64,000 bases of DNA from Candidatus Heimdallarchaeota archaeon (GTDB lineage Archaea > Asgardarchaeota > Wukongarchaeia > Wukongarchaeales > JBHIFL01). Shown here one piece after another: positions 16,342-37,280 of this stretch. The notes under the pieces are model-generated. The model had not been told where the DNA came from. It saw only the letters and a list, made by a program, of their open reading frames with translations, and ran no database searches. Positions within the stretch are counted from its first letter, which is position 1. Each line of letters opens with the position of its first letter. The DNA lies in contig JBHIFL010000004.1 of the NCBI GenBank assembly GCA_046761065.1, positions 15,687 through 79,686 of the forward strand, in the 5' to 3' direction. Both the position numbers and the translations under genes were made by a program.

Positions 16342-17577
16342 TTGTGGTTGGAGCCATTGTCTGACAAAAGTCCATTTGATTGGAAACCACTTGTGCTGCC
16401 ACCCCAAGTCATGGCGGGACTTCGCACAAAAAGTATTCTAACCGTGGGGTTAATCAAATTCCATCGACAATGGGGGCCGCTCACGTGGATAGCAGACATC
16501 AGACCAAAGAGCAAAACTAGTGAGTTATTGAAGGACCCTACCCGAAGATCGGAAGTATATGAAGGCTTAGCTTACACAGGGATCGAGTTTCAGGGAATCG
16601 GAAATGAGCAGGTATGCGTAGCCCGGTATGAACGAAGAGAATTCCCCGAATTTCTAACAGATCTCCTACTTTTTGCGGTAGACGAGAAGAAACTTATTGA
16701 GAAGGGGGAAACCCTCTACGGAATCCTAACACTCGCAAAATTGGTGATGAGCCGATCTGAAGGACAAGTAGAAACGCTCCCAAAAACCCTGTGGGAGATA
16801 TTGATCCCTAAATCGGTGGAGATCGAAGAGCTCGAAGAAATCGAAGGTTTTCGAAGGATCCGCGCGCCAATAATGCCTATCCAAGAGTTGGCGCCCGTGC
16901 TTGGCATGATTTTCGTCGACTTGAAAAATAAGAAGTTTATCCGACAGTTCTTTCCAGACATGATTGATGGTAATGACACCTCAGAACTGGAACTCTTCCT
17001 CTTCAGACTAGTTACCAGACAACCCGAACCGCCGTGGAGATTCCCTCCGGCAAAGCCCATAAGTTATCCATGGGGATTCCATATACAGACAGAATGGAAC
17101 GGTTATCATATAACAACCCTCTACTCCAAGTCTTTTGGATCAGCCCTAGTCGCCCTGTCCCGGGAAAAACTTTCGTGGAACTTACTAGTCTGGTTTAATA
17201 TCCTCCTATCCCACCTTGATGTGCTGGGGCTAAACCTTCACGGAGAAACCCTTAAAGAGGTTCTTATCCACATGCTAAGTGTTCAACATTCTGAACCGAA
17301 ACAAGAAAGAGCACAATATTTTCTGGAGATGATGTTAAGATCCAATGAACTTGTCCCACTTTTTCCAAACGCGCAACTTCGATCAGAAGTAAAAAAATTC
17401 CCCAACCGAATCTTCTTTCAACAATATCCCAACGTTGTAGACCTTATCAAAGAAGTGGGGAGCGAGACCATCTATGCACTTTCCGAAAAAATTGGAGTGC
17501 CTCTTAATGAAGTAGTTACCATGATAATCTTCCTTCAATCCAGAGAATTTGTCACTCTACAGCGAGTAGGTACCTGA
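16342..17577 (+). CDS. Hypothetical protein with longin/uDENN-like N-terminus and C-terminal wHTH
   Basis: VGLIKFHRQWGPL (F-x4-GP uDENN-type start) and a terminal IYALSEKIGVPLNEVVTMIIFLQSREFV helix-turn-helix. Confidence 0.6.
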   Translation: MWLEPLSDKSPFDWKPLVLPPQVMAGLRTKSILTVGLIKFHRQWGPLTWIADIRPKSKTSELLKDPTRRSEVYEGLAYTGIEFQGIGNEQVCVARYERREFPEFLTDLLLFAVDEKKLIEKGETLYGILTLAKLVMSRSEGQVETLPKTLWEILIPKSVEIEELEEIEGFRRIRAPIMPIQELAPVLGMIFVDLKNKKFIRQFFPDMIDGNDTSELELFLFRLVTRQPEPPWRFPPAKPISYPWGFHIQTEWNGYHITTLYSKSFGSALVALSREKLSWNLLVWFNILLSHLDVLGLNLHGETLKEVLIHMLSVQHSEPKQERAQYFLEMMLRSNELVPLFPNAQLRSEVKKFPNRIFFQQYPNVVDLIKEVGSETIYALSEKIGVPLNEVVTMIIFLQSREFVTLQRVGT

Positions 17578-18961: not shown

Positions 18962-19630
18962 TTATTTAAATGTTTTAAAACTCCGTACTTCCCCCTCAGG
19001 ATGTGTTTGTGTCGTCAAGGGTTTCTTTCTTCTACTTGAACTATTAATCGGTTTTTCTGTCCTATCAAGTCCGAATCTTGTCACGATCTTTCCAACGAGG
19101 AGTTCAAAGGCTTTTTCCACATGTTCTCCTGTCTTTGCCGAAGTTTCCAAGTACTGTACTTGAAAACCATGCTGTTTTGTGCAGGCACTCTGTTCTTGTG
19201 CATATTGGTCTCCAAAACAAGGGTCAACCGTATTTTCCATGCTATTACGAAGATCTACCTTGTTTCCAATCAAGATCACTGGGATTATGCCAAAACCGGT
19301 GTTTTCCCAAATCTCATTCATCCATATCGATAAGTTTTCGCAACTTTTAGGATTGGTGATGTCAAAGAGGAGCATTGCACCACAAGCAGAGCGATAATAT
19401 ATTTTTCGAACAGATTTGAATGCCTCTTGCGATCCTAGATCCCAAATTTGGAGTTGACAGGTCCTATCATCATCCCTTAAGGAAAACTCTTTTAGAGCAA
19501 AATCTACCCCAATTGTTGGTTTATAGGTAGTGCGAAAGCTTTTTCCCATGAACTTTCTTCTAAGAGTTGTTTTTCCAACTTCCGGATCGCCACATAAAAC
19601 GATTTTCAATGATCCGGTCGGTTGTTTCAT
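18962..19630 (-). CDS. Rab-like small GTPase
   Basis: GDPEVGKT, PTIGVDF, WDLGSQ, GNKVD, ETSAK. Confidence 0.95.
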   Translation of the reverse strand: MKQPTGSLKIVLCGDPEVGKTTLRRKFMGKSFRTTYKPTIGVDFALKEFSLRDDDRTCQLQIWDLGSQEAFKSVRKIYYRSACGAMLLFDITNPKSCENLSIWMNEIWENTGFGIIPVILIGNKVDLRNSMENTVDPCFGDQYAQEQSACTKQHGFQVQYLETSAKTGEHVEKAFELLVGKIVTRFGLDRTEKPINSSSRRKKPLTTQTHPEGEVRSFKTFK

Positions 19631-19846
19631 TACCAGAAGCCCCCAACATACCGTTCCCTATCTCTTTATACTAATGACTTTCATTCTTCTTTAACATTTT
19701 TTAACAGTTAAAATGGGAGAGATATATTGGCTTTTGTTGCCATCTAGTAAAAATAATCGGTATATGTTAAGTCGGAGTATGACCTACTAGATTGAAGAAT
19801 CAACGATTATAGTAAGTATCTATTATACGTTCAAAGTCAAAAAATC

Positions 19847-19891
19847 CATTAAAGAGCATTAAGGCATTTATTTTGATTTAATGCTTTAATG
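19847..19891. promoter_or_regulatory. Imperfect inverted repeat in a divergent promoter region
   Basis: CATTAAAG(AG)CATTAA at 19847-19862 versus TTAATGCTTTAATG at 19878-19891. Confidence 0.4.
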
Positions 19892-20195
19892 TAGAATTTT
19901 GCTCATTTTGAAAGTAAAATGCTCTATATGATAACCCAAAAAGAAAGACAAAAATTCATCCTCCGCCCCACCTGTAGATATCCTTACAAAATGAAACAGA
20001 GATGATTGCCCATAACATCAATACCTCGGGATTATTGAAATATTTTCAAAATTAAGGGACATAATATAGAAGACGCCTAAATCAAAACACTTCTCGCTAT
20101 CTAATTGTTGAGTAATGAGAGGATTCGAAAAAACAATAATACGGTCTTAAGATGGAATAGCCTAAACACTAAAGCTGAAGGGGAAATGCTTAGCT

Positions 20196-20978
20196 ATGGT
20201 TGTATTTGATGGGTTAATTTTGACGATTCTCGAGGATTTTGGTCCAGCTCCAATTGTAAACCTCTCAAAAATGGACGAAGCTACAGCTACTCATCTAAGT
20301 ATCACTGGATTGACTATCGTGGGACTAGGAAGTACTCGGGTTTATCTTCGCCTGTTTGGGTCGATTCCCGTGCCGGATTTTCCAGACAGCGAAGCGATGC
20401 CCTTTATTTTTTCCGTCTCAGGAGAAGACTCTGCGGATGAACGAATCATACAACAAGGAAGGGATTGCGTCATCTTTTTGCTCTTCGCGTCTTCTAACAG
20501 GGCTTCTGTTTATGCGACACATCATGAGGTTGAGAAAATCCTTAATGAGCATGTAAAGAACTTTCAAACTAGGGAAGACCTTTCCCAAGCGGCTATGGAG
20601 GTAATCCTTGGCCAGATCAACCAGATTGAACCCCCTAGCATACAAGAACTGCCATTAGAAGAACAAGAAATCGCAATGGAGAGAAAAGCAGGTTTGGATT
20701 TCTATCAAGTTTTGCCAGATGGAGAACTCCAAGAAACTTCTCTTTCTGATGGACTAAAATCGCCCATCCTGATAATAGTAAATCACGTAAATCAGTTAAT
20801 TCTCAAATTAACCCTTTCAGAGGACATATCAGAACGGTACGATTATCTAGCCGCACGCGCAGCAAATCGGGTGAATGTCGAAAGGCTAAGGAATGCATAT
20901 CGAATTAGAGATATTGATGATCCTTTGGAAATCGACATGTTACTAGAAAAAATCAGAACAGGATTCAAAATAAGTTAA
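20196..20978 (+). CDS. Longin/uDENN-like domain plus putative gelsolin-like domain
   Basis: LILTILEDFGPAP...FIFSV...DER...RDCVIFLL. C-terminal FYQV..DGEL...ILIIVNH...R..YLAARAAN. Confidence 0.55.
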   Translation: MVVFDGLILTILEDFGPAPIVNLSKMDEATATHLSITGLTIVGLGSTRVYLRLFGSIPVPDFPDSEAMPFIFSVSGEDSADERIIQQGRDCVIFLLFASSNRASVYATHHEVEKILNEHVKNFQTREDLSQAAMEVILGQINQIEPPSIQELPLEEQEIAMERKAGLDFYQVLPDGELQETSLSDGLKSPILIIVNHVNQLILKLTLSEDISERYDYLAARAANRVNVERLRNAYRIRDIDDPLEIDMLLEKIRTGFKIS

Positions 20979-21262
20979 GTCCAATTGGATAGATCATGTC
21001 ATGGAAAAAGGATACCTGCAATTTTTTTGACAATGTGTTATCTTGAGTAAGGGACTTATGGCTGAGATTTTTTGAATATTGCGGCTTTTAGCCCTTATAA
21101 GCTAAAATTTGTCGTTGATATATTCAAACGCTTAAGCAAATAGAATCTGAACTTGTTTTCACAAATCTTATATGTATCCTCTTCGAGAAGGTAGGATTGA
21201 GGATGTACGCAAGCCAAGAAAATAGGATTGGAAATGCGATTTAGATCTTTGGGAGAATAATT

Positions 21263-22222
21263 ATGTCTGGTGTCGCGTTCGGGGAAAGCAAACGACATAC
21301 GGAGAAGATTCTATTAATGGGACTCGCTGAGAGTGGAAAATCGACCATTGTGAGCGTGGCTTTTGAAGGACATAGTCCACCTCCTAGAGACGCGCGGTAC
21401 GATGCCACTTTGGAATACATTCGTAAGAATATTGAAGTTAACGGTGAAAAACTAACCATATTTGATGTAGGAGGCCAACGCGCGTTTTTGGATCGCTTTA
21501 CTGGCGAATTAGCAGAATTCATTTTCAGTGAGGCAAGTGCTCTCATTTTTGTTGTCGATTTGACCAAACTAGAAGAACTTAGTCGAGCCAAATTTTACTT
21601 CGATAAATGCTTAAAGAACCTGGAGCAGTTCTCTCCAACTGCACAAGTATTCTTGTTTCTCCATAAAAAGGATCTAATTACGGATGAATTGGAGTTTTAT
21701 GAATATTCGATCAAGCCGGCTTTATTATCAGACGTGTCGGTGCCGGTTAATGTCCATTTTACCTCGGTTTATGATAACTCGATTTATGAGGCGACTGAAG
21801 CGGTGCTTGGTTCTGTCGATATAACGGCAGAGGAGTTGGAATCGATAATTGTCTCGTTTCGTGCTAAAACTAATGCAAAATCCGTCGAAGTGCTCTCATT
21901 GAAAGGCGAACCGGTTCCATTGACGCGTGTCGGTGAAGTGATCGAAAGTCTCAAAGTTTATGAGAACCTTGATTCTAATCTTATAGATGCGTTTACGGCT
22001 GATTCCTCTGATGAAGAGCCAAAAAAATTGACGGGTGCCGTTTTAGAAACGAATGATGATATGAAAGTGTGGAGACGAATAGGGACCGACTTGCTTCTAA
22101 CAGTTACTTTCTCAAAAAGTGACCTTCTGGAAATCTACCCCTCGGTATTATCTCTGACTAGTCGACTTGGATCCGCGAAGAAACCCAGAAAACAGATGAC
22201 TGAAGAAGATCAGGCCAAATAG
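21263..22222 (+). CDS. Rag/Gtr1-like GTPase with C-terminal roadblock-like domain
   Basis: KILLMGLAESGKST, ATLEY, DVGGQ..F, ALIFVVD, LHKKDL, TSVYD. Confidence 0.9.
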   Translation: MSGVAFGESKRHTEKILLMGLAESGKSTIVSVAFEGHSPPPRDARYDATLEYIRKNIEVNGEKLTIFDVGGQRAFLDRFTGELAEFIFSEASALIFVVDLTKLEELSRAKFYFDKCLKNLEQFSPTAQVFLFLHKKDLITDELEFYEYSIKPALLSDVSVPVNVHFTSVYDNSIYEATEAVLGSVDITAEELESIIVSFRAKTNAKSVEVLSLKGEPVPLTRVGEVIESLKVYENLDSNLIDAFTADSSDEEPKKLTGAVLETNDDMKVWRRIGTDLLLTVTFSKSDLLEIYPSVLSLTSRLGSAKKPRKQMTEEDQAK

Positions 22223-22279
22223 TTTTTGTTTTCCAAGGAGATACGGGCTAATTAGACAAATACAGCCCATATTCAGCTC

Positions 22280-25200
22280 TCATGCACCCTCGACATCGAC
22301 TATTACTTGCCCGCCTTCCCCAACTATTGCTTCTTCTCCGTAGAGTTCCTGATAGGCAGCAATAATCCGCGTCACTAAGCTCCGTAAGCCATCCATCTGA
22401 GCGGAAATATTCTCTCTTGGAACTTTCGTTTCGATTAATGAGCGGATCTGTCGTACCGAAGGAAGAATCTCTGGTGAAAAGATATTGGTGAGCTCACTAT
22501 ACACCGGATCGACCAGAAGGTTGATCGTCATATTTTCCTTCCCGCCCCGGGCTTCCGGATTGTCGATGGCAAATGCGTAGGATACGCACATCATCCGGGC
22601 CTCGCCCAACCTGAGATCAAAGATAGTCACTTTCTCCTCGGTTGTTTCTTCAACAAAACCGCCTGCGCTAAAGGAACGGTCGGAGAGATCGACTAAGAAT
22701 TGCATATGATCCTCCAGCAAAGATGGCGTGATAATACTTGGGACGGGACCCTCACGTTGATCGAAAAAGGAAAGTATGACCCCATAGGTATGATCATCGA
22801 GCCGGGCGATTACCTCATCGTCCGACATTTGATTTGCAATGGCCATCACGCGCTCTTTGTCTAACCCAACAACCTTGCGGAACTTCTTGATGGCAATACC
22901 TGTCGTGACGGCGGCAGCCGCAATTATTCCAAACAGATAGATGAGGGGAATCCCCTTTGTTGCAGTTATGTATGGTGTCTTCACCCACACATCCCAAGCC
23001 TCGGTGTTCGCATTTCCACCTAAATCCTTGGTCGCAATAGTCCACAGGATTGGACTTCCTGGCTCAACTTGCACTTTTGCCGAATAATGTGTGGTATTAA
23101 TCGACTGCATTGGTGCTTGCCGCCAAGTCGTACCTTCATCAACCGAGTAGATAAATTCAAGGCTATCGACTCCGGTCCCTTTTTCTGCCACTTCAGCCCA
23201 AATTGTTAGGTCCCCATCCCCAGGGTCGATAATTCCCGCATCAAGGACGCGCGGCGGTGCCCCATCCCCCACGATTTGCTCCGACGCTCCTCCTTCAACC
23301 TGGAGGTTCGCACCATCTGCTACGGTGATCGTATACGAGAACATTGTTTGATACCCGAGGTTCTCATCATGGATATAGTGCGTTCCATTAAAGCGCATTA
23401 CTCGTTCTATCTGCGAAATAGTGCCCAGGGAGGAGGTTGCGCTTGCACTCTTGCTTAGCGTGGACGACTCGCTGATGGAAATTGAGAGGCTGACATTTTC
23501 GATGCTTCCAAAGGGATCCTCAGCACTCACCCAGAATCGGACATGACCTTCCTCATCGGGTAGCAGGTTATACCCGAAGGAATTGATCTGTGGTGGCGTC
23601 TTGTCGGGCACTGCAAACTTATACGCAATCCCAATCCCTACGTTTGAGTTGTTTGCTTTGTCCTTTGCCTGTATGGAGAAGTCAATGACATCTCCCACCC
23701 TTAAGCCAGTAAATTCGTGGATATAATATGTCCCATTCCACGTCATTGGAATGGTCTGAGAGACTTCGTAATTTTTTTGGAATACTATGGAAACCGTATT
23801 TCTTTCCTCCGGGAAACCGCTCCCCAAGTTGCCATCCGTCACATTCGCCCAGAGGACTGCCGTCCCATTCTGGAATTCCTCACCTCCCGCACCCATAACA
23901 CGCGGGGGGACGATATCCTGAACTGTGTGTCCCGATTCGAATTGTGTATCTTTATTGCCCGCGGTATCCCGGACCGTGATCTCGAAATTGAAGGTGTTCT
24001 CGTACGGAAGCTCGGTGTCATAGTAGTAATAGGCTCCAACCCATAGCATTGCCCCTTCCTCTTGTTGGTCGCCCGTGATATTGATCATCAGTTTCCCTAT
24101 CGTCCCAAAAGGATCATCAGCATAGCACCAAAACCGGATGTGACCATCCGAATCAGGCAAGTAATCGTAACCAATCTGGTCGATTACGGGAGCCGTGTGG
24201 TCGCTTACCCCAGCCATTCTCCAGAAGCCCATCCCTTGGTTCCCTGCATTGTCTTGGGCGCGTACTTGGTAATTGATCACATCTCCAACGAACAAGCCGC
24301 CAACGGTGTAGTCATAGTTCGACCCGCCAACCGACACCATTTTTCTTGTCTGTTGGGCACCTCCCCCCACCCGATAGATGAAAACCACGGTGTCGGGATT
24401 AATCCCGCTCCCGCGTTGACCGTCGGTCACCTGCACCCGAAAAGTTACCGTCCCGTCTTGGTTATCCCATTGGGCCACGGTGACAAAATTCTGGCGTGGA
24501 GGGGCGACTTGATCGAGAACCGTGCCTGTGCGTGGTGAGGTTTGATTTGTTAGACCCGCCATATTTGAGGCCGTAATATTGTATGAAAACGAAGTACCAG
24601 AGTTTACGAGCAAATCATACTCGTAGAAAGTTCCATTGTAGGTCATTATCCCGCTAAATTGAGAAGGGCTGCCCTCAACGCGAACCTCTTTAATACTACC
24701 AATATCTTCAGTGACATCCGCCCAGAAGCAGATATGCCCATCTACATCTTTTATAAAATAGTATCCTGACGCATGGATCGTAGGGGGTGTCTCATCGCCT
24801 ACGCCATACATGTAGGATGGACTTATCCGGGAATTATATTCAATGTCCTCGACCTTGACCTGGTACGCAAGAATGTCACCTGCCAGAAGGTTCGCGAGTG
24901 TATAAGTATAAAAATCACTAGTTCCGTTCCATACCATTTGCTTATAGAAGGGACCAATACCATTCTTCCTATATGTGAGCAAAACACTGTCATTAGCTTC
25001 AGGGAATCCTGAGCCGATCCCATCGTTTGTTTTGGCCCAAATCGTGACGGTACCATTATGAAAATCTTGAATACCAGTATCAAGTTCCGGAGGAGCCTTA
25101 TCGGGCACATAAGTGGTCGGTCCTCCACCAAGAAGACTTGCGGAAAGGCCAGCATTATCGAAGGCAGTCACATTGTACGTAACAGCCATTCGAGTCGTAG

Positions 25201-28200
25201 GTTTAGTCTCCCAGTAGGCAATGTTGGTGTCATTTATGTAGAAGGTTCCATTATAGATCAATGAGTAGATATTAGAAGCACCTGAGGAAAGCGTAATGTT
25301 GATGGAAATGCGGCTGGTGTCCAAGCCACTGTAGCTATCACTAATATCAGCCCAAAAGCGCATGTGCCCGTTGACATCCGGCACTGCCTTAAATCCCACA
25401 GTAGTGATTACAGGGAATTGTAGATCTTCAGTAATCAAGCTATGTTGCACGTCCCACACATTTGCAAGGGTCGTATTCTTGTTACCACTTTCATCCCTCG
25501 CAAGAGCAATGGTATAATTTATAGCGTACGGTGACAGTGTTGTATTCCAATCGAAGAACTTGTCCCACACCCAAAACGTACCATTGTTCCACATCACCTC
25601 TGTTTGTGGAACCGGGTTTACAGTGGAATTATACTTGAAGTCGACTCTTGACACATTATAATTGTCAGTCACATCCGCCCAGAAGCGTACCGTCCCATTT
25701 CCATAGTATTCATGACTATAGGCGTTAATCACTGGAGGCACAGTGTCTTGCGGGTTGAAATACCCCGGATTATCCTGGTTATCTACAAAATTGCCTTTTC
25801 GATCTGTTGCATTGATGTAATAGTACAACCATTCATTTGACGCTAAAGAAACATTGTGAACCCAATGGGTGTTATTCCACGTCATTGGCTGTGGTGTTCC
25901 ATATGGAGGGTTCACTATGAAATAAGTTACAGTTACCCCAGCAGGGCTATCTTCAATCCCACTCCCATTGACCGAATCGCTTGCGGTGCTCCAAATGGTG
26001 GCAGTGCCCCCAGAATACGTCACACCAGAATCTCCCAGACTTGGAGCTACTTTGTCTAGCACAGGTTGATTAAATACGCTGTTCGAATCGGAAAGACCAG
26101 ATAGGTCAGAAACAGTGACTGTATAATTAAAGAGATTTTGTGTTTTTATACCTTCATCATCACCATTGTTGATGCCTCCCACCCAATAAGGCAGTTTTAC
26201 CTCAACGATAAAGTGTGTTCCATTAAAGGACATGGAGTAAATCCTCGGTCCAACGGGATCCGTTGCGGTGATATTGACGAAGCCGCTGGTAGGATCGATT
26301 CCGGGAAAAATATCCGTTGCATTGAACCAGAAGAGAAGAAGCCCATCCTCTGCTGGTAACGCCTTATAATTTTTGTCTTGAATGATTGGGGGAGCAATTA
26401 TACCCTCCAAATGCAAAGCCCAATGAAATGCGCGATCAAAAAGTGCCCATCCCTCTGTAGTTAGAGCACTACCATTTGGAGCTGGCCAAAATACACGCCG
26501 TTCAGGTGCCGTGTAAAGAGGAATGTAAGTCTTATTTCCTTTCTCAAGTGCGATCAGTTGCCCCTGAGACGAATTATTAACAGCGCGTGCTAAAAGGTCG
26601 ATTTCGCTTCCACTCGGCAGTGGGTCATAGTCTATCAGATAACTCATTGTTGCCGGTACGGAATAGATGCGGTTAATGCCGGATTGAAGGCTTGTAGTAA
26701 TGTTATGTGTAGTATTTACGATGTAGATCTCATCATCCTGTAATGTGCCATGGTTTGATCCTAAGTAGAGTTCATCGAACGTTCGTGATTCCCAACTGAG
26801 AATTGGAATCGGAGTCTCACGCAAACTGATAGTCCACGCATCCGAGGCCGTTATAGAAATCAAGACTCCATCATAACCTTCCAAATAAAATGGAGTGGTT
26901 GAAGTATCCTTGTTCTCCCGACCGTGATAATCCACCACATAGCCTAGGTCTTGCACGATATGGTTGTAAAAGGGGGCATTGCTGAACACCTCATCTGTAT
27001 TGGTTTGTTCGATTCCAACTGTATAAAAGGAATCCGGATCGATCTGGTTATTAAATTCGGTATTAAGCCACGCTTCACTTCTTGCCACATATGACAACCG
27101 CACTTCCTGCAACAGCCCATCAAACCCGCGGTCTGCCTGCGGAACATTTCCAATAGTCGGTTGGATACTGTAGTCATACAAGTCTGTTCCGCTGATCGTT
27201 TGAGTTAAATCCAGGGTTCCATTGCGGTAAATGCGTAGATTGTTTGAACCTCCTGCTGACCAGGTTAACGCATAATGAGTCCAAGTGTAAAACGTCCAAT
27301 CCGTCCCCCCACCCACCGCTTTCCTCTCAGCATTTGTCCGAAGACCACTTTTCACGTCATTATCTTTCCCTAATTTCCATACCATATCCGCTCCCCCACT
27401 TTCCCAAGCTTTTGCAAAGATGAAATCGTCTCCGCTATCGTGGGGGTTCATCCACACTTGAACGGTTATGTTGATCCAATCCTGATCGTTAATGTGATCC
27501 AGCCTAATCAGATCACCAGCCCAGTCATGAAAATTTTGGGCATACCCAAACAAGCCGCCCACTCGGGAGGGGGTTTGGAATGCGTCTCCATCTCCCTCTA
27601 CGCCACCACCGGTTCCATGATGCCGATGCCCCGAACTATCCGTGAACTCGTCATCCTGTCCGCTCCCCATTTCTTGCAGATGGAGGACTGCTTCATACCC
27701 ATTGCTCCAGACCCCGACCGGATTCGCTTGTGATTCTATATCGGGATTACCATATTTCATCGTAATGACGGTATCTGTCGTGTTTGAAAGGTCGCATTTG
27801 ACCCAAGCGATCAAGAGCGCCTCGGAAGGGCTATAACTTTGATCGAATAGGACTAGCTCATGATCTAACTGGTTATCCGCAGAATCAAAGAACGCGATAT
27901 CATCTCCATCACTCTGCACATCCGTTTTCAGATCGGTGTCATGCAGTCGAAGCAGGGTAGGAAAATCGGTCAGATCAGCAACGACTTGTGTATGATCAAT
28001 TGTGATGTCTTTAGAGTATGTATATGCCACTTGGAAATCAGGGTCTGTGGAGTCGTAAGTGACAAGCATGAGATGCGTGGCTAGAGGGGATTTGAGCTCA
28101 ACCGTTGGTTCCGGATTGACAAAGTTGCGAACGATGACATCGTCAAACCAGCCCTCACCATAGAGCGCGAGTTGTCCGGCAGCATCAAGGGCATAGACTG

Positions 28201-29245
28201 AATCGTCCAGATCAGATAGTTCCATCCGCAGGGTCATGTTATCGTCATAAATTCTTCCGCGAACCCAGACGTCATCCGTATTGACGGTTTGAGCGGCGAT
28301 TTCATAACAGTACCAATCACCAGCGGCATAGTTCATACCACTGGGAAATGCTGTCGTGCTGTTGAGTAGGTTTTCATTAGCATACTTTCTCCAGAGTTCG
28401 GTCTGATTCTCATTGTTGTTCATATTCAACCGATACGAAGATAATACTGATGGGTCGAATCGAATGACAACTCCCCGACGTCGGTCGCCCCCCTCCCACC
28501 TTATCCGCGCGCTTAGTGTCACATTTCCATAGGATCCCGTTTCTTTATAAAAATAGGCGTTGTTGGATCCTCGAAGGACATAGTTACCTGACCCGGTTGG
28601 GTATTCCTCGACCCACCAGCTTCCCGATTTTGCGATCCATCCCGCAGAATCGCCATCATCAAAATCGTCAAAAAACACGAAGACATGCGCCGGATTATGG
28701 GGGGGATCGGACACGCTAGGATTACCATAATAAATCCAGTAGTTTGCGTCGTAACTATTTGCAGCGATTGGGTTTTCCGTCTTGAACCAGATCAGGGTTT
28801 TATAGGTGTTGAAGGCTGTCGTGTTAACTCGGTTGAGTTCGACCCAAGATCCTGAGTCATTGTAAGCGATTCGTAGATCATCGCCATCCGCTTGTAGATC
28901 CCCTTGGTTAGTGAGATACCATGTATTAAGACTGAAACTCACCGAATAGCCCTGAGATAGTGCTTCATTCATGTTATTTGTAACATTAATCTGAATTCTT
29001 TTTTGATAATCGTAACTCCCAAGACTATATAGAGCCTTACTGCCTTTATGAGAGGCCTCCGGGGTGTATGTGATCCGTTCGGTCTCCGGGGAACTATTAA
29101 CTGGAGATACATCATCGATCTGAGAAGGGTCGTCCACTGGGGATTGTTTTTCAGCGGGTGTGGTTACTAATAAGAAGAAAATAAAGGTTAAGAACAACAA
29201 TCTACCTATTTTTAATTCAAGCGGCTTGCCACCCATGTTCTTCAT
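22280..29245 (-). CDS. Giant single-pass surface protein: DUF2341/LamG lectin domains, Ig-like repeats, TM helix, cytoplasmic longin/uDENN-like domain
   Basis: N-terminal signal peptide; two DGDD[LI]...W.K...YGN (DUF2341-like) units; LamG-like WTHYALTW/GLLQEVRLS; about 10-12 D..PP.I...[FI]WA repeats with NGT sequons; TM LIYLFGIIAAAAVTTGIAI-KKFRK; cytoplasmic SFFDQREGPVP...DNPEARGG. Confidence 0.88.
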   Translation of the reverse strand: MKNMGGKPLELKIGRLLFLTFIFFLLVTTPAEKQSPVDDPSQIDDVSPVNSSPETERITYTPEASHKGSKALYSLGSYDYQKRIQINVTNNMNEALSQGYSVSFSLNTWYLTNQGDLQADGDDLRIAYNDSGSWVELNRVNTTAFNTYKTLIWFKTENPIAANSYDANYWIYYGNPSVSDPPHNPAHVFVFFDDFDDGDSAGWIAKSGSWWVEEYPTGSGNYVLRGSNNAYFYKETGSYGNVTLSARIRWEGGDRRRGVVIRFDPSVLSSYRLNMNNNENQTELWRKYANENLLNSTTAFPSGMNYAAGDWYCYEIAAQTVNTDDVWVRGRIYDDNMTLRMELSDLDDSVYALDAAGQLALYGEGWFDDVIVRNFVNPEPTVELKSPLATHLMLVTYDSTDPDFQVAYTYSKDITIDHTQVVADLTDFPTLLRLHDTDLKTDVQSDGDDIAFFDSADNQLDHELVLFDQSYSPSEALLIAWVKCDLSNTTDTVITMKYGNPDIESQANPVGVWSNGYEAVLHLQEMGSGQDDEFTDSSGHRHHGTGGGVEGDGDAFQTPSRVGGLFGYAQNFHDWAGDLIRLDHINDQDWINITVQVWMNPHDSGDDFIFAKAWESGGADMVWKLGKDNDVKSGLRTNAERKAVGGGTDWTFYTWTHYALTWSAGGSNNLRIYRNGTLDLTQTISGTDLYDYSIQPTIGNVPQADRGFDGLLQEVRLSYVARSEAWLNTEFNNQIDPDSFYTVGIEQTNTDEVFSNAPFYNHIVQDLGYVVDYHGRENKDTSTTPFYLEGYDGVLISITASDAWTISLRETPIPILSWESRTFDELYLGSNHGTLQDDEIYIVNTTHNITTSLQSGINRIYSVPATMSYLIDYDPLPSGSEIDLLARAVNNSSQGQLIALEKGNKTYIPLYTAPERRVFWPAPNGSALTTEGWALFDRAFHWALHLEGIIAPPIIQDKNYKALPAEDGLLLFWFNATDIFPGIDPTSGFVNITATDPVGPRIYSMSFNGTHFIVEVKLPYWVGGINNGDDEGIKTQNLFNYTVTVSDLSGLSDSNSVFNQPVLDKVAPSLGDSGVTYSGGTATIWSTASDSVNGSGIEDSPAGVTVTYFIVNPPYGTPQPMTWNNTHWVHNVSLASNEWLYYYINATDRKGNFVDNQDNPGYFNPQDTVPPVINAYSHEYYGNGTVRFWADVTDNYNVSRVDFKYNSTVNPVPQTEVMWNNGTFWVWDKFFDWNTTLSPYAINYTIALARDESGNKNTTLANVWDVQHSLITEDLQFPVITTVGFKAVPDVNGHMRFWADISDSYSGLDTSRISINITLSSGASNIYSLIYNGTFYINDTNIAYWETKPTTRMAVTYNVTAFDNAGLSASLLGGGPTTYVPDKAPPELDTGIQDFHNGTVTIWAKTNDGIGSGFPEANDSVLLTYRKNGIGPFYKQMVWNGTSDFYTYTLANLLAGDILAYQVKVEDIEYNSRISPSYMYGVGDETPPTIHASGYYFIKDVDGHICFWADVTEDIGSIKEVRVEGSPSQFSGIMTYNGTFYEYDLLVNSGTSFSYNITASNMAGLTNQTSPRTGTVLDQVAPPRQNFVTVAQWDNQDGTVTFRVQVTDGQRGSGINPDTVVFIYRVGGGAQQTRKMVSVGGSNYDYTVGGLFVGDVINYQVRAQDNAGNQGMGFWRMAGVSDHTAPVIDQIGYDYLPDSDGHIRFWCYADDPFGTIGKLMINITGDQQEEGAMLWVGAYYYYDTELPYENTFNFEITVRDTAGNKDTQFESGHTVQDIVPPRVMGAGGEEFQNGTAVLWANVTDGNLGSGFPEERNTVSIVFQKNYEVSQTIPMTWNGTYYIHEFTGLRVGDVIDFSIQAKDKANNSNVGIGIAYKFAVPDKTPPQINSFGYNLLPDEEGHVRFWVSAEDPFGSIENVSLSISISESSTLSKSASATSSLGTISQIERVMRFNGTHYIHDENLGYQTMFSYTITVADGANLQVEGGASEQIVGDGAPPRVLDAGIIDPGDGDLTIWAEVAEKGTGVDSLEFIYSVDEGTTWRQAPMQSINTTHYSAKVQVEPGSPILWTIATKDLGGNANTEAWDVWVKTPYITATKGIPLIYLFGIIAAAAVTTGIAIKKFRKVVGLDKERVMAIANQMSDDEVIARLDDHTYGVILSFFDQREGPVPSIITPSLLEDHMQFLVDLSDRSFSAGGFVEETTEEKVTIFDLRLGEARMMCVSYAFAIDNPEARGGKENMTINLLVDPVYSELTNIFSPEILPSVRQIRSLIETKVPRENISAQMDGLRSLVTRIIAAYQELYGEEAIVGEGGQVIVDVEGA

Positions 29246-29754
29246 TTCATTCCCCTCATCCAGATATGCGCATCTACTGATCTGATGAGAATTTCAAATT
29301 CAGGTGATATTTATAGTAATGTAACGTCTTATGCGGTTACAGCATGAGATAACCTACCCTTATGCTTCAAGAGTGGGTATCACAGTGCCCTTTTAAAGTG
29401 AGACCCGAAGTGATTTTAAAACATTTATATTTTAAAATTTAACAGCCTCTATTCGAGAGCAGTTGAGTGAAAGACTTTAATCCGTAGACTGAGGAATTCA
29501 AACCAGAAGAAACTAAGGATTCGTATAACTTCTAGTGGATTCGACCTCTCCTTTTGCGGATAGATCCCTCTGGAACAGAATTCGCATTTGTTTTACAATT
29601 ATTCGATTATTTCGCCGAAGCATTAGGTCAATCATATCAAACTTCCGAAAAATAAAGAAGTAAAAAGGAAAGAATTACTTGCAACGCTTATTTGATTTCA
29701 GTTATATAGTATGTTCGGAGGGGGATATTTGGTCAATGTTTTGAGGATGGCACA

Positions 29755-30864
29755 ATGTCCCAAGCCCACTGGCTAGGAGAAAAAATACTTTTCTGTGGTC
29801 TGTCCGAGGCAGGTAAGACCGCTATTCGCAGCCTAGTGTTTTCAGGGAAACAAACCCAAGAAGTTGAAGGTTTATCGGCGACTATTAATTATGTTCGACA
29901 ACTTGTACATTTAGATTCACATAATTTAGATTCAGATAGAACGTTCACAATCCTCGACCTTGGAGGGCAGAAAATATTCTTGGAGCGGTTCATTAATCAA
30001 TTCAGTACATTTGTTTTTAATCGAGTACGCGCCTTAATTTATGTAGTCGACAGCGCAGATAGTTCACGGTTGGATTCTGCAAAAGCATATTTAGACAGCG
30101 CCCTAGCACGCTTGAAACAGCACAGTCCCTCTGCAAAAACGGTTGTGCTACTCCACAAGACGGATCTTCTTCAGAATGTACATGATAAAAGAAAAATCAT
30201 TAATCGTTTACGGAATGTCTTTCAAAGGGGTATAGAATCGCCAATTATCTTCTTTGAGACGTCAATATATGACAACAGCTTAAAAGATGCGTTTGACGAG
30301 ATCTTGAGGATATCCTTTCCCGAAATGGTTCCCATTCCACCTGTGGAGCGTGGAGGGTTGGTTTCTCCAGAGAGAGAATCGATTCCAATGGAACCCACAA
30401 CGCCCATTAAAAGGCCAACGACGGATCCGAGTCTTCCAAGTGAAGCAAAAATTCGGTCAGAAATTGGGTTACCCACTGAAGAAACGTATGATACCTTCAC
30501 CGCAGTAGAACAATTAATTGAATATCTTGAAGCATTAGTGATTTCTCTGGAATTGTCATATGGTGCCCTTTTAGAAGCGAATGGAACCCCATTAGTCGAG
30601 ATTGGGGACTCTCATCGATACTTAGAGATTGTAAGGGAGAGTTATGAGGCATTTCAGTTGAAATCGATCAAAACTTCTGAATCAGTTGATCCTTGGGTTG
30701 TAGAAACAGGAGACATGCTTATCGTGGCTCAGCCAATCAAAGCTTCACGGACTTTGCTGCTAGTATGCGTTACTTCCATCAAAAATCAGTTGCTTGAGAA
30801 AATGCCTGAACTTAGGATAAAAATGACAGAGCTAGTACACAAAGCTCTTGGGGATCCAAGCTGA
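29755..30864 (+). CDS. Rag/Gtr1-like GTPase with Pro-rich linker and roadblock-like C-terminus
   Basis: GLSEAGKT, ATINY, DLGGQ, LHKTDL, ETSIYD. Confidence 0.9.
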   Translation: MSQAHWLGEKILFCGLSEAGKTAIRSLVFSGKQTQEVEGLSATINYVRQLVHLDSHNLDSDRTFTILDLGGQKIFLERFINQFSTFVFNRVRALIYVVDSADSSRLDSAKAYLDSALARLKQHSPSAKTVVLLHKTDLLQNVHDKRKIINRLRNVFQRGIESPIIFFETSIYDNSLKDAFDEILRISFPEMVPIPPVERGGLVSPERESIPMEPTTPIKRPTTDPSLPSEAKIRSEIGLPTEETYDTFTAVEQLIEYLEALVISLELSYGALLEANGTPLVEIGDSHRYLEIVRESYEAFQLKSIKTSESVDPWVVETGDMLIVAQPIKASRTLLLVCVTSIKNQLLEKMPELRIKMTELVHKALGDPS

Positions 30865-30967
30865 AACGAAAGTGGATCGATTGCGTAGGATCTGCATCGT
30901 TGTGTAGACAGCAGGTGTAATGCGTTTATAACCCCATAGCAGCTAAGATTATCTGGGTGCTCATTTG

Positions 30968-32245
30968 TTATGCTAATTTAACCTCAAACCGACCGCTTTC
31001 TATATCACCGCTCAGGACGACTACACCCTCCTCCTCTAGTTCCCTAAGTACACCCCTGATCATGGCAGTACTCACCTGGAGTCGTGAGGCGATTGTAATC
31101 GCTGATGCGGTAACCATTTCCTCAATTATTTTTCGGACCTTATCTTTTATTGTGCCAGCAGCAGGGGTGGGAGTTACAACAGAAGTGACAGGAGGGCTGG
31201 GAGCAGGTTCAGGTATAGAAGTAGGTTGAGTTGCAGGCGGAACGTGTGCCATTTTTGAGATAACGTCCTCTAAAACTTTAAACCGCTTAATGATTTCGTT
31301 CATATCGATCGATGGAGTGGCCGGTGTTGCAGCCTTAAGAACCCCAAGGGATTCCTCGATCTCAGCTAGTTTTCCACTGAGAACCGCTATTTTATTTTCT
31401 ATCTCCCCCTGTCCGGCTTCGAGCTGATCGAGTCGGGTTGTGTCGGCAGGTACAAGAGCTCCAAGTCCTTCCAACCGTTGGTGGAGCTCCTGATGACCCT
31501 TCCTCAAGCTTGTCAAGGTCTGATCGAAATCAGCTAATTTCTTCTCGATTTGATTCAACTGTGCAGTCTCAGTGACTGCGGGAGCGGTCGGTGTTGCGGT
31601 CTTGAGGGCTCCTAAGGTTTCTTCGATCTCCACGAGTTTTCCACGGAGAATGGTCAGTTTGTTTTCCATCGCTCCTTGCTCTGCTTCGAGCTGATCGAGT
31701 CGGGTTGTGTCGGCAGGTGTGGAAGGTCCAATTTCCTCTAGTTGTTGGTGAATCCCCTTCAGGCCCTCTCTCAAGTCTGCCAGGGTCTGATCAAAATCAT
31801 CGTATTTCTGCTCTACTTGACTCAATCGCTTGGTTCCCGACTCAAGCTTCCCATCAAGTTCCTTAAGTTTTTCTGGGGCGATTCCTTCGGGTCTTTGTTG
31901 GAGTTCCTGTAATTCCTTGCGTAGGGCTGTCAACATCTGATCGACTGCTTCAAACTTTTGCTCAATCTGGTTCAACCGGTCGATTTCTGAGTTGATCTTT
32001 GTATCCAGTCCCTTCAGCTTTTCCGGGTCAAATCCTTCTGGAACCAGTTGTTCTTTTCTTTTGGTTAAATCAACTGCCGCATTAACTGCCTCTGCTAATT
32101 TTTGCAATTGGTTATTTTGTTTTTTGAGGTTTGCTTCTTGGTTCTTCACATCTTTTACAAGATCACCCACTTTTTTCTTTAGATCCATGACTACAACTTT
32201 TATGGCTTTTATCGACCTATCAAGCTTCTTAGTATCCTCAGGCAA
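30968..32245 (-). CDS. Long coiled-coil protein with internal duplications and C-terminal wHTH
   Basis: Heptad repeats, duplicated PADTTRLDQLEA...GKL.EIEE.LG.LK.ATP, and terminal IASRLQVSTAMIRGVLRELEEEGVV. Confidence 0.85.
   Translation of the reverse strand: MPEDTKKLDRSIKAIKVVVMDLKKKVGDLVKDVKNQEANLKKQNNQLQKLAEAVNAAVDLTKRKEQLVPEGFDPEKLKGLDTKINSEIDRLNQIEQKFEAVDQMLTALRKELQELQQRPEGIAPEKLKELDGKLESGTKRLSQVEQKYDDFDQTLADLREGLKGIHQQLEEIGPSTPADTTRLDQLEAEQGAMENKLTILRGKLVEIEETLGALKTATPTAPAVTETAQLNQIEKKLADFDQTLTSLRKGHQELHQRLEGLGALVPADTTRLDQLEAGQGEIENKIAVLSGKLAEIEESLGVLKAATPATPSIDMNEIIKRFKVLEDVISKMAHVPPATQPTSIPEPAPSPPVTSVVTPTPAAGTIKDKVRKIIEEMVTASAITIASRLQVSTAMIRGVLRELEEEGVVVLSGDIESGRFEVKLA
31416..31718. 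repeat. Intragenic direct repeat, 36 bp identical, 267-bp period
   Basis: GCTTCGAGCTGATCGAGTCGGGTTGTGTCGGCAGGT at 31416-31451 and 31683-31718. Confidence 0.9.
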
Positions 32246-33853: not shown

Positions 33854-35416
33854 TTGATGTCTGAATATGTTCAATTACCTGAAAGAAGTTTGTTAGGGAA
33901 AAAGATAGTACTTTGTGGACTTAGTGAGGCAGGGAAGACATCAATCCGCGACGTGGTGTTTGGAGGAAAAGAAGCAACAGAGGTAGAGGGCTACGGGGCT
34001 ACGCTAAATTACGTTAGACAATTCATTTCCTTAGAGGGAGAAGGAGGATACAAATTCACCTTAATGGACCTCGGAGGACAGCGTATTTTCTTAGACAGGT
34101 TCATTACGAAATTTTCGCCATTTGTCTTCCACAATGTTGTTGCACTCATCTATGTAGTGGATGTGGCGGATTCTGATCGGTTTAATTCAGCGAAACATTA
34201 CTTTGATGCGGCTTTGGAACGATTACAGAAGTATAGCCCAAAATCACATGTTTTTGTTTTGATCCACAAGATGGATTTAGTTGAAAAGAATCCTGATTAT
34301 AAAGAAAAAATAACGGACCATTTACGAAGTCTTTTCGAAAAAGATATTGACCGAAAAATCATCTTTTTTGAAACGACTATCTATAATGAAACTATAAAAA
34401 ACGCCCTCTACGAAATCCTGAAGATCTCATTTCCCGAAATCCCGACTAAGACCACTCAGCCTCCAAGGGAAATACCTTCGGAAGTGGCTCAACAGAAAAC
34501 GGTAAGTGAAGCGGCTTCTTTCTCGATTGAGACCCCACAGCCTATTGGCACAAAACCCCAGGTCGATATCGAAGCTGCTCCAAGTCCTGCTGTAGAAGTG
34601 AATCTTTCGGAGATCGCGAGGGCTCTTGCCTTTATTGAACAGCCATTCAAAATACCGTACACAAGTGAACAAGAGGTTGGGGCAGCGATACCAGTTTCTT
34701 CGCAATCTGCCATAACGGAAGAACTTCCTGACGAATATGAGAATATAGTAAAGGCCCTTCAATTTATCGAGACAGGAGTACCCTCTTTAGAAGATAACTT
34801 CATACCAAAAACACAGTTGGAAGAATCCAAAAAGGTACCTGAGCTGCCCGTTGAAGAATTAAGAGAACCCAGTGAAGATATCACGTCTATTGAGATTGCC
34901 ATCAATGATATCTTATCTGAAGATGAAATTAAAGAATTGATACCCGATCTTGAGGAGCCCACTCCGTCTCAAGCAGCCCCAGAGAACATTATTTTTCCAA
35001 AAACGGCCTTTGAATCACATTCGACTTTAGATGAAGAATTTGATGTATTTATTGCGGCAGAGGAAATTGTGAGATTCTTAGATGAAACAAGAATGTTATT
35101 TAACCTTTTTTATCTTGCGGTTAAACTAAGTGACGCAGAAAACCTCGTTCATGTTGGAGACTTTGAGAAATACGATGAACTAGCCTGTACCACGTTTGAA
35201 ATCTTTCAGATGCAAACCGAATCAGATCCAACCGAGCTCACACGCTTCATAATGAGAGCAGAAAAGTCATTTATACTTATTGAACCGATTGGAGACGCCC
35301 TAAATATGCTTGTTATAGGGCCATTAGTCTCTAAATCCATTTTTCTTTCAAAATTGCTCGAATTTAAGGAAAAAATGACCAGAATGCTTAATATAACATT
35401 TTATGACATGTTTTAA
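33854..35416 (+). CDS. Rag/Gtr1-like GTPase with long acidic linker and roadblock-like C-terminus
   Basis: GLSEAGKT, ATLNY, DLGGQ, IHKMDL, ETTIYN. Close paralogue of 29755. Confidence 0.9.
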   Translation: MMSEYVQLPERSLLGKKIVLCGLSEAGKTSIRDVVFGGKEATEVEGYGATLNYVRQFISLEGEGGYKFTLMDLGGQRIFLDRFITKFSPFVFHNVVALIYVVDVADSDRFNSAKHYFDAALERLQKYSPKSHVFVLIHKMDLVEKNPDYKEKITDHLRSLFEKDIDRKIIFFETTIYNETIKNALYEILKISFPEIPTKTTQPPREIPSEVAQQKTVSEAASFSIETPQPIGTKPQVDIEAAPSPAVEVNLSEIARALAFIEQPFKIPYTSEQEVGAAIPVSSQSAITEELPDEYENIVKALQFIETGVPSLEDNFIPKTQLEESKKVPELPVEELREPSEDITSIEIAINDILSEDEIKELIPDLEEPTPSQAAPENIIFPKTAFESHSTLDEEFDVFIAAEEIVRFLDETRMLFNLFYLAVKLSDAENLVHVGDFEKYDELACTTFEIFQMQTESDPTELTRFIMRAEKSFILIEPIGDALNMLVIGPLVSKSIFLSKLLEFKEKMTRMLNITFYDMF

Positions 35417-35539
35417 AGAGAACATTCATTTATTGCATTAGAAAGTTTACCTGATAAGTAATAAATACTATTGAGAATTTGTTTATAGCGATGTAACTCT
35501 TGCCAAGGACTAAATAGGTTAGCATGGAGTGCATCTAAG

Positions 35540-36448
35540 ATGAGTTCAGCTGAAGAGGAGATTTTAAGTCGAAAGAAACTATTGATGATGGGCTTAAGTG
35601 AGGCAGGTAAGACAACCATTCGTAGGGTTGTAATTTCCGGAAATCCTCCTGAAGAGCTCAAAAAATATGACGCAACCCTCGATTTCGAGCGGGATACGAA
35701 AAAAATAGCCGGAGAAAGCCTTACAATACTCGATATAGGTGGTCAGGAATCCTTTTTAGAGAAATACACCGGAGAAATGGCGGAATTTGCATTTTCAGGC
35801 GTGGCCTCACTTATCTATGTAGTTGATATTGCGGACTTATCGAAATTGCCACGTTCCAAGTATTATCTGGACGCTGCACTTTCCAAACTAGAACAATTCA
35901 GCCCAGACGCCCAGGTTTTTTGTTTCATCCATAAAAAAGATCTAATCAATGCAGAAAGTCTCCAATCAACCTTGGATATGGTAAAATCCATGATGAAAGC
36001 CAATATTCCGAAAGAGATAAAATTCTATAGCACTTCCATCTATGACGGATCGGTCTTTGCAGCGATGAGTGAAGCCGTTGCGGGGTTCTTCCGGAAAAAG
36101 GAAGAAATTATTGCCAGTTTGAAAAGGTTTGCTGACAAATATGAGACCGTGCGCATTAGCGTGTATAGTAGAGAAGGTATACCCATAACAACTTTAGGAA
36201 AAGACTCCAATGTTTGGCAAGTTAACGAGAAAATGCTATTTAGTTCAATGTTTAGGATCTTGAATTTGATTGAAAGTACTGAAACGTTAGTCTCAAACTT
36301 TATTATAGGGCGGACTCATTATATTTTTCAGGTTGTGGTGGACGAAAACACCCTTTTAAGTGCTGCGACAACCAAGACACCAGCTCTTGAACAAGTTCTT
36401 GCGGATGTGTATGCAATGAGAGACGATGTTAAATTGATAGTACAATAG
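35540..36448 (+). CDS. Rag/Gtr1-like GTPase with C-terminal roadblock domain
   Basis: RKKLLMMGLSEAGKT, ATLDF, DIGGQESF, IHKKDL, TSIYD, then ISVYSREGIPI. Paralogue of 21263. Confidence 0.92.
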   Translation: MSSAEEEILSRKKLLMMGLSEAGKTTIRRVVISGNPPEELKKYDATLDFERDTKKIAGESLTILDIGGQESFLEKYTGEMAEFAFSGVASLIYVVDIADLSKLPRSKYYLDAALSKLEQFSPDAQVFCFIHKKDLINAESLQSTLDMVKSMMKANIPKEIKFYSTSIYDGSVFAAMSEAVAGFFRKKEEIIASLKRFADKYETVRISVYSREGIPITTLGKDSNVWQVNEKMLFSSMFRILNLIESTETLVSNFIIGRTHYIFQVVVDENTLLSAATTKTPALEQVLADVYAMRDDVKLIVQ

Positions 36449-36872: not shown

Positions 36873-37280
36873 ATGTCAATGAACAAGGTGTGGAGTCAAT
36901 CCGCCAAAGATCTGCTTTATGGCCTTTTCCAAAGTGAACCCGAGATTCATGGCATTGGCCTTTACAATGCCTTGGGAAAATTGGAGCTAATGTTCCATCG
37001 AACTGAATTTGCCAAAGATGCATTGAGTAAAGCTGTAGGGAGTGTGATTGCTAAGTTTGGGAGGCAGATTGTCTTCTATTGTCACGAAGAAGGTGATTTA
37101 GGTTATATTCAGACACCAACCCATCTCGTGTGGTTTGAACCAGTGTCCACCAACTGGATTCTTGCATATATGCTTCCTCTTGGCGGAAAAGCCATGTTCT
37201 TAATTGAAAATTTGAAAAACACATCACAATCGTTACGCTACCTACTTGAAAAGAGTAGAAGATTTCTTAATAAGCTTTAA
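36873..37280 (+). CDS. Standalone roadblock-like protein
   Basis: Helix, then EIHGIGLYNALG, helix, GYIQTPTHLVWFEPV...WILAY strands, helix; 135 aa. Confidence 0.55.
   Translation: MSMNKVWSQSAKDLLYGLFQSEPEIHGIGLYNALGKLELMFHRTEFAKDALSKAVGSVIAKFGRQIVFYCHEEGDLGYIQTPTHLVWFEPVSTNWILAYMLPLGGKAMFLIENLKNTSQSLRYLLEKSRRFLNKL

Follow-up and report, generated by a model that had tools for sequence, protein, structure and literature searches.

Within the window, which is the whole 64,000-nucleotide stretch of DNA analysed here, an open reading frame on the reverse strand encodes a giant surface protein with genes for Rag-like GTPases on both sides, as the sequence-only reading had described (Gtr1_RagA E 1.5e-32 and 3.2e-34), and a soluble longin gene lies upstream of, and co-oriented with, the first of these GTPase genes (Table 1). 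Positions 19500-31445 are spanned with few differences by single contigs from each of two public runs, so an assembly chimera is rejected; both runs belong to the same hydrothermal-vent study and are possibly source samples of this assembly. Hydropathy finds a hydrophobic stretch at aa 8-31, a single transmembrane (TM) helix at aa 2101-2119 and no other such segment in the 2321 residues, which bears out the earlier estimate of about 2100 extracellular residues and one helix. An N-terminal export signal, one helix, positive-inside charge and extracellular sequons are all present in the sequence, as expected of a type I single-pass protein. The ectodomain carries 50 N-x-S/T sequons against 22 ± 4 in shuffled sequences, and the surface protein looks heavily glycosylated. 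Each of the 11 stalk repeats is recovered by a leave-one-out HMM (E 1e-11 to 1e-23) and most end in a D-x-x-[AP]-P linker; their Ig assignment comes from weak Big_7, Big_13 and cadherin look-alikes together with a weak CBM56 match (E 1.4e-5). No solved relative of the LamG domain was found by sequence search, and the label "lectin" given to the ectodomain stands as far as the match to the LamG fold family (PF13385), being beyond that a fold assignment only. The block containing this domain (aa ~400-750) has no counterpart in an alignment with the close relative P0167. Between LamG and stalk (aa 760-950, window ~26400-26970) lies an alpha/beta-looking module without a Pfam match, which is partly kept in the close relative.

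Table 1. Features of the receptor gene and its neighbours, in window coordinates
Feature	Position	Strand	Basis
Giant single-pass (type I) surface protein, 2321 aa	22280..29245	-	ORF; hydropathy; contiguous contigs of two runs
Hydrophobic stretch, probable signal peptide (aa 8-31)	29153..29224	-	Kyte-Doolittle scan
DUF2341 module (aa 120-203)	28637..28888	-	PF10102 E 2e-14, 2 stretches; second stretch further on
LamG / ConA-like lectin-fold domain (aa 592-726)	27068..27472	-	PF13385 E 2.7e-14
Stalk, 11 tandem ~100-aa Ig-like repeats (aa 955-2092)	22970..26383	-	Leave-one-out HMM
TM helix (aa 2101-2119), then basic stretch KKFRK	22889..22945	-	Hydropathy
Cytoplasmic longin (uDENN) domain, FLCN type (aa 2153-2302)	22340..22789	-	AF2; VIA; weak Pfam Folliculin
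b1-b2 loop F2161...G2166-P2167, GP motif	22745..22765	-	Alignment; PMC9473554; PMC12290439 (available part)
Arg2233, codon CGG, candidate arginine finger, b4-b5 loop	22547..22549	-	133/137; AF2 model
Arg2288, second invariant Arg, C-terminal helix	22382..22384	-	137/137
Soluble longin, GP motif, D81-x-R83 after strand b4 (Arg codon 20442-20444)	20196..20978	+	AF2; VIA
Rag-like GTPase, "short" class, convergent with receptor, 57 bp gap	21263..22222	+	Gtr1_RagA; motifs
Rag-like GTPase, "long" class, divergent from receptor, 509 bp	29755..30864	+	Gtr1_RagA; motifs
Second Rag-like pair, candidate substrates (long 33854-35416, short 35540-36448)	33854..36448	+	Gtr1_RagA

The cytoplasmic tail had been proposed to contain a longin domain, and this is the fold that was found: the AlphaFold2 (AF2) model, built on 137 sequences, reaches pLDDT 92.9 with the longin order b-b-a-b-b-b-a-a, and its VIA-align scores against members of the GAP-longin class are Z 10-14. 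The same proposal put a cytoplasmic domain of about 195 residues at SFFDQREGPVP; this motif is present at aa 2159, about 40 residues after the TM helix with two modelled helices between, and the length is better given as about 200 residues for the whole tail. The top structural match is the Loki longin 8yqg (Z 14.0), and the best eukaryotic one is folliculin (FLCN), with Z 12.8, rmsd 2.8 and 19% identity over 134 aligned residues in the active complex (8dhb_J), and Z 11.6-12.8, rmsd 2.7-2.8 and the same identity across its structures 8dhb, 6nzd and 6ulg. Lst4, NPRL2 and C9orf72/SMCR8 give Z 9.4-11.7 at 9-13% identity (9-11% for SMCR8, C9orf72 and NPRL2), and DENND1 (Z 9.0-9.3), Mon1-Ccz1 (Z 6-7) and the adaptin, TRAPP and SNARE longins score lower. 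VIA rows within 1 Z unit are tied, and the preference for FLCN therefore rests more on identity and on matches to Pfam Folliculin (PF11704), which are weak, occur in 39 of 137 family members (best E 2e-4), cover the b4-Arg-b5 stretch and stay below the cut-off of 23.3 bits (up to 19.9 among the members shown). The query receptor has no PF11704 match, FLCN was not found in PDB sequence searches with the tail profile and with a fused homologue, and the relation of tail to FLCN is a structural and weak-profile one only. The protein ends about 20 aa past the longin, as do its homologues, and has no C-terminal DENN module there; with this module absent and the Pfam scores sub-threshold, it is not a folliculin proper. 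The tail likely works like the catalytic domain of folliculin.

The GP motif and an arginine finger mark catalytic GAP longins, and the motif is missing from the non-catalytic FNIP2 and NPRL3 (PMC12290439, available part). Mutation of Phe10 in FLCN abolishes GAP activity (PMC9473554), and the Avl9 study places the arginine between b4 and b5 (bioRxiv 10.64898/2026.01.05.697756). The receptor tail combines the longin fold with a GP motif at the start of b2 and a conserved arginine in the b4-b5 loop. F2161 is present in 134, G2166 in all and P2167 in 128 of 137 sequences; G2166-P2167 opens strand b2 (E51-58 of the model), and F2161 and P2167 are six residues apart, matching Phe10...Pro16 of FLCN. 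The stretch YAFAIDNPEARGGKE starts at aa 2223, and Arg2233, encoded exactly where the sequence-only reading had placed an arginine codon, falls in the model between E101-113 and E121-130, which are strands b4 and b5, and proved to be conserved among the homologues. The loop itself had been misdescribed as D-x2-ARG: it is D-x3-ARG here, its Asp varies (D 30, E 45 and N 26 of 137), and the family motif is P-x-A-R-G-G-x-E-N, with E2237 (130/137) and N2238 (129/137) conserved. Basic columns other than R2233 and R2288 vary across the 137 sequences; since R2288 is also invariant, conservation of an arginine is not by itself proof of catalysis. The GP motif, the Phe10 position and the arginine are kept down to about 22% identity. 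It is somewhat more probable than its negation that the protein is a membrane-anchored Rag GAP of the folliculin/SMCR8/NPRL2 type; its GAP activity, its use of a Rag as substrate and its working as a dimer are what we infer.

The genome's four best Gtr1_RagA matches all lie inside the window. The motifs of the 21263 Rag (G1, DxGGQ, HKxD and TSxYD) and of the 29755 Rag (including DxGGQ and HKxD) are intact. In both proteins the catalytic Gln is retained and the residue preceding the switch I Thr is Ala instead of Arg, which makes an arginine supplied from outside plausible. Neither shares the receptor's transcript, one gene being convergent with it and the other divergent, and a promoter and terminator scan of the convergent gap gave chance-level results. 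The short-class profile matches Gtr1/RagA over nearly its full length, with Gtr1/RagA as closest solved relatives, and the C-terminal roadblock-like region of the long class was assigned by eye; the Rag tree left long/short orthology across families unresolved, and these genes are therefore termed two Rag paralogues rather than one orthologous pair. A complex prediction of the tail with both flanking Rags and two GTP scored 0.29 against a mark of 0.32 and was counted neither way. Folliculin needs FNIP2 and the tail has no known obligatory partner, which counts against a GAP of the FLCN type. Both Rag classes match RagA/Gtr1 at E 1e-35 to 1e-44 versus 1e-19 to 1e-25 for RagC/Gtr2; the substrate of FLCN is RagC, and RagA would collide with the FLCN loop (PMC9473554), so the RagA/Gtr1-like character of the neighbours also counts against an FLCN-type Rag GAP.

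Other genes of the window deserve mention beside these GTPases. A 564-aa protein (39312-41006) with a weak Gtr1_RagA match (E 2.8e-4) is perhaps a degenerate fifth Rag; next to its gene are one of SNAP/TPR-like type (37989-39275) and an ORF for a roadblock-like product of 135 aa (36873-37280). Between the Rag genes, 30968-32245 encodes a coiled-coil protein that contains internal repeats and carries an HTH at its C-terminus; its position is kept in the close relative (L073), and its repeat breaks the public contigs at ~31416-31451. A 411-aa protein (16342-17577) appears NPRL2-like by eye, having F-x4-GP close to the N-terminus and perhaps a winged helix at the C-terminus, and has no Pfam match; a gene of equal size occupies its place in the close relative (L073 24347-25528).

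Linkage of receptor and Rag genes extends to other genomes and is more than chance. A co-oriented Rag G domain starts less than 400 bp after the longin in 19 of 22 genomes of family f4 and in 8 of 8 of family f23, often followed by a second, convergent Rag. In 17 genomes (16 of Hodarchaeales and one of f4), 17 of 86 receptor copies have a Rag within 5 kb against at most 2 expected; these copies come from 11 genomes and show several orientations, and 10 of the 16 Hodarchaeales genomes have a Rag within this distance of a receptor. Kin genomes are not independent, and the count that matters is therefore four lineages. The other 69 copies, mostly of Hodarchaeales, and several others have no Rag beside them, extra paralogues lying mostly away from Rags, and this counts against the Rag-GAP reading. 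The close relative keeps the whole 25-kb gene order, and its tail is 82-89% identical, whereas identity in the ectodomain ranges over 45-87% per 100 aa, its receptor being 3278 aa long with more repeats and without the aa 400-750 module; the conserved block includes lipoate genes, and this is therefore ordinary synteny, not independent support.

Relatives of the tail number 158 at the 50% cluster level. A TM helix is found in 119 of 132 testable homologues, a median of 43 aa before the GP loop, with 3.8 K/R residues after it versus 1.1 before. The shortest proteins have a few hundred residues, many of them being fragments, and the longest has 5809 aa, while open frames extend to 10,000 aa; three from Hodarchaeales span 8,800-10,400 aa (G056 C193, G048 C10, G046 C52), and beside two of these a paralogue of 1,540 aa stands in tandem. 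Among 400 genomes of the phylum, strong tail matches occur in 20 of 22 Hodarchaeales genomes (f21), 1 of 2 in f22, 22 of 31 in f4, 8 of 12 in f23 (f4 and f23 being, we infer, other Heimdallarchaeia) and the present genome, and in no other family (0 of 135 in f9). In a single-gene tree of 13 rows the host's EF-2 falls among Hodarchaeales (100/100), while the taxonomy used puts the genome in its own class of three genomes. An assignment of the host to Sifarchaeia was dropped, given this EF-2 placement and the lack of any PylS match above the cut-off. The sole EF-2 gene detected (G000 C76:15157-17628, L107) has an in-frame stop and seemingly lacks about 30 residues around switch I/G3, defects that are probably an assembly error. 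This genome also holds a second tail copy in pieces (G000 C13:32299-33517, L020), with GP and ARG intact, stops and frame changes in one to two Ig repeats and a weak TM helix; its relatives P0014, P0159 and P0160 are short forms of 372-396 aa with degenerate TM helices, P0160 without a Rag listed nearby.

If the protein is a membrane-anchored Rag GAP, a glycosylated ectodomain with lectin-fold tips on an Ig-repeat stalk would hold the longin tail at the inner membrane face, where the F...GP loop would dock a GTP-loaded Rag-like GTPase and Arg2233 would complete its active site, turning Rag off at that membrane patch. The tail would probably dimerise to act, pairing either with a second tail or with a soluble longin of which 20196 is an example, and the simplest switch would be a clustering of ectodomains brought about by contact. 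The ectodomain may either gate the tail, as in a receptor, or merely place it, as in an adhesin or scaffold; ligand-gated signalling through it is speculative and rather less likely than not.

The soluble 20196 longin bears on which protein would serve which Rag. Its AF2 model (pLDDT 89.4) matches 8yqg at Z 15.0, Lst4 at 11.4 and FLCN at 10.9 with 8% identity, and across its family the GP is invariant and the D-x-R after strand 4 near-invariant; having both GP and its own arginine, it is not FNIP-like by the GP criterion. The family occurs in 31 of 151 genomes searched and lies repeatedly beside short Rag genes in Hodarchaeales, where orthologues stand directly upstream of those of the 21263 Rag, flanked by Rag genes on both sides and with no receptor adjacent, and longer paralogues adjoin the short Rag in several receptor cassettes. 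A profile comparison of the tail and 20196 families gives a weak match (probability 18%, E 0.0014), and the two are therefore treated as separate. The coupling to Rag-like GTPases that had been proposed for the receptor stands in part: it is strongly supported by the gene linkage conserved in f4, f23 and Hodarchaeales, but assignment of the 21263 Rag to the receptor is weakened, since this Rag is linked to the 20196 longin even where no receptor lies nearby. The gene arrangement makes the 20196 protein a candidate second, rival Rag GAP or a partner subunit; the 21263 Rag may thus have its own GAP, with a long-class Rag such as 29755 as the receptor's client, or, by analogy with eukaryotic GAP longins, tail and 20196 longin may form a pair. 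The GP and D-x-R of 20196, together with the adjoining short Rags, would also fit a different division of labour, in which the receptor is an adhesin or surface-coat glycoprotein whose tail recruits Rags as a membrane scaffold, which is Ragulator's job, and catalysis is left to soluble longins such as 20196. An 11-repeat stalk would presumably conduct a conformational change poorly, and longin dimers are general GTPase platforms (PMC3747258, available part), which suits this scaffold; it is nevertheless unlikely, because non-catalytic longins such as FNIP2 and NPRL3 lack the GP motif and the tail keeps GP, the Phe10 position and the arginine.

A GAP may also act on another GTPase. In other Asgard families, G domains of Rag-like or Rab-like type occur in one chain with soluble homologues that have GP and RG (L006:1396-2880, L007:1480-2892, L011, L010 and L012). 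Such single chains are possible self-contained GAP-GTPase units, and fusion to GTPase domains speaks for a GAP role of the longin; the Rab-like fusions (L010 and L012) count against a Rag-specific reading. They favour instead a GAP for an Arf-related or Rab-like GTPase, for example that encoded at 18962-19630, comparable to the action of SMCR8 and Avl9 on Arf, with Rag adjacency reflecting a shared pathway; the same signature serves Arf GAPs (PMC12290439, available part; Avl9 preprint), and the block conserved in the close relative contains a Rab-like gene. The gene directly after the receptor is, however, a Gtr1_RagA match in 27 of 30 f4/f23 genomes, and the best eukaryotic structural match is FLCN rather than SMCR8, so this client is quite improbable. 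A GEF or GDP-state binder of the DENN/Mon1-Ccz1 kind with a structural arginine is highly improbable: the majority of longins serve as platforms for GEFs, an Asgard DENN module has been proposed to act as a GEF by Liu et al. (10.1101/2020.10.19.343400, available part) and the invariant R2288 indicates that a conserved arginine need not be catalytic, but no DENN core follows the longin, and GEF-type longins score lower (DENND1A Z 9.0, Mon1-Ccz1 6-7) and lack GP (PMC12290439, available part).

The membrane-anchored Rag GAP can be extended to a Heimdall-group family of ligand-gated receptor-GAPs, in which variable ectodomains would read contact with cells or surfaces, the tail would switch the adjacent Rag pair and a 20196-type longin would serve the other Rag, an archaeal forerunner of the division of labour between FLCN and GATOR1 that would have been tied to the cell surface before there were lysosomes or TOR; so full a version is on the doubtful side. 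What Rag and Rab proteins do in Asgard archaea has yet to be established (PMC10933270), and it is an open question if the clients of Asgard GAP-type longins are Rag or Arf-related GTPases (PMC12290439, available part). A cassette kept across several families names a putative enzyme, its substrate candidates and a candidate catalytic residue, all in small, soluble, assayable domains. Should the tail prove to be a Rag GAP, the module of folliculin and Rag would predate eukaryotes and would have been tethered to the plasma membrane by a surface protein, in cells dependent on contact with partners. This gene family lies beside Rag-like genes in four families of archaea, so the cell surface may be where the link between folliculin and Rag began.

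The domain class is known in Asgard archaea. Asgard FLCN/SMCR8-type longins with GP and an arginine finger have been published and proposed as possible Rag or ArfR GAPs (PMC12290439, available part), and NPRL2-like longin fusions have been reported by Liu et al. (10.1101/2020.10.19.343400, available part); the available parts of both sources describe no single-pass receptor fusion and no receptor-Rag cassette, and the word "transmembrane" is absent from the available main text of the former. Neither the TM fusion nor the Rag cassette was described in any paper found by a literature search whose scope excluded most subscription journals. The Loki roadblock-longin 8yqg is of the same domain class and from the same phylum as the receptor tail. 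Plexins, single-pass receptors in which ligand-driven dimerisation switches a GAP domain on the cytoplasmic side, may serve as a working analogy only, their Sema ectodomain and RasGAP domain being unrelated in fold. NPRL2-NPRL3 (GATOR1), SMCR8-C9orf72 and the monomeric DENN GAPs (Avl9, DENND6A) share the fold (Z 9.4-11.3), the GP and the b4-b5 arginine, and Avl9 indicates that such a domain is able to act without a partner longin; unlike the receptor, the NPRL2, SMCR8 and Avl9 group comprises soluble multi-domain proteins recruited to membranes by partners, with lower structural identity to the tail. FLCN-FNIP2 (yeast Lst7-Lst4), the RagC/D GAP, shares with the receptor tail the longin fold, the F-x4-GP loop, the b4-b5 arginine and the association with Rags; the tail differs in having no DENN module and no known FNIP partner, in following a TM helix and an ectodomain of 2100 aa in one chain, and in the RagA/Gtr1-like type of the neighbouring Rags.
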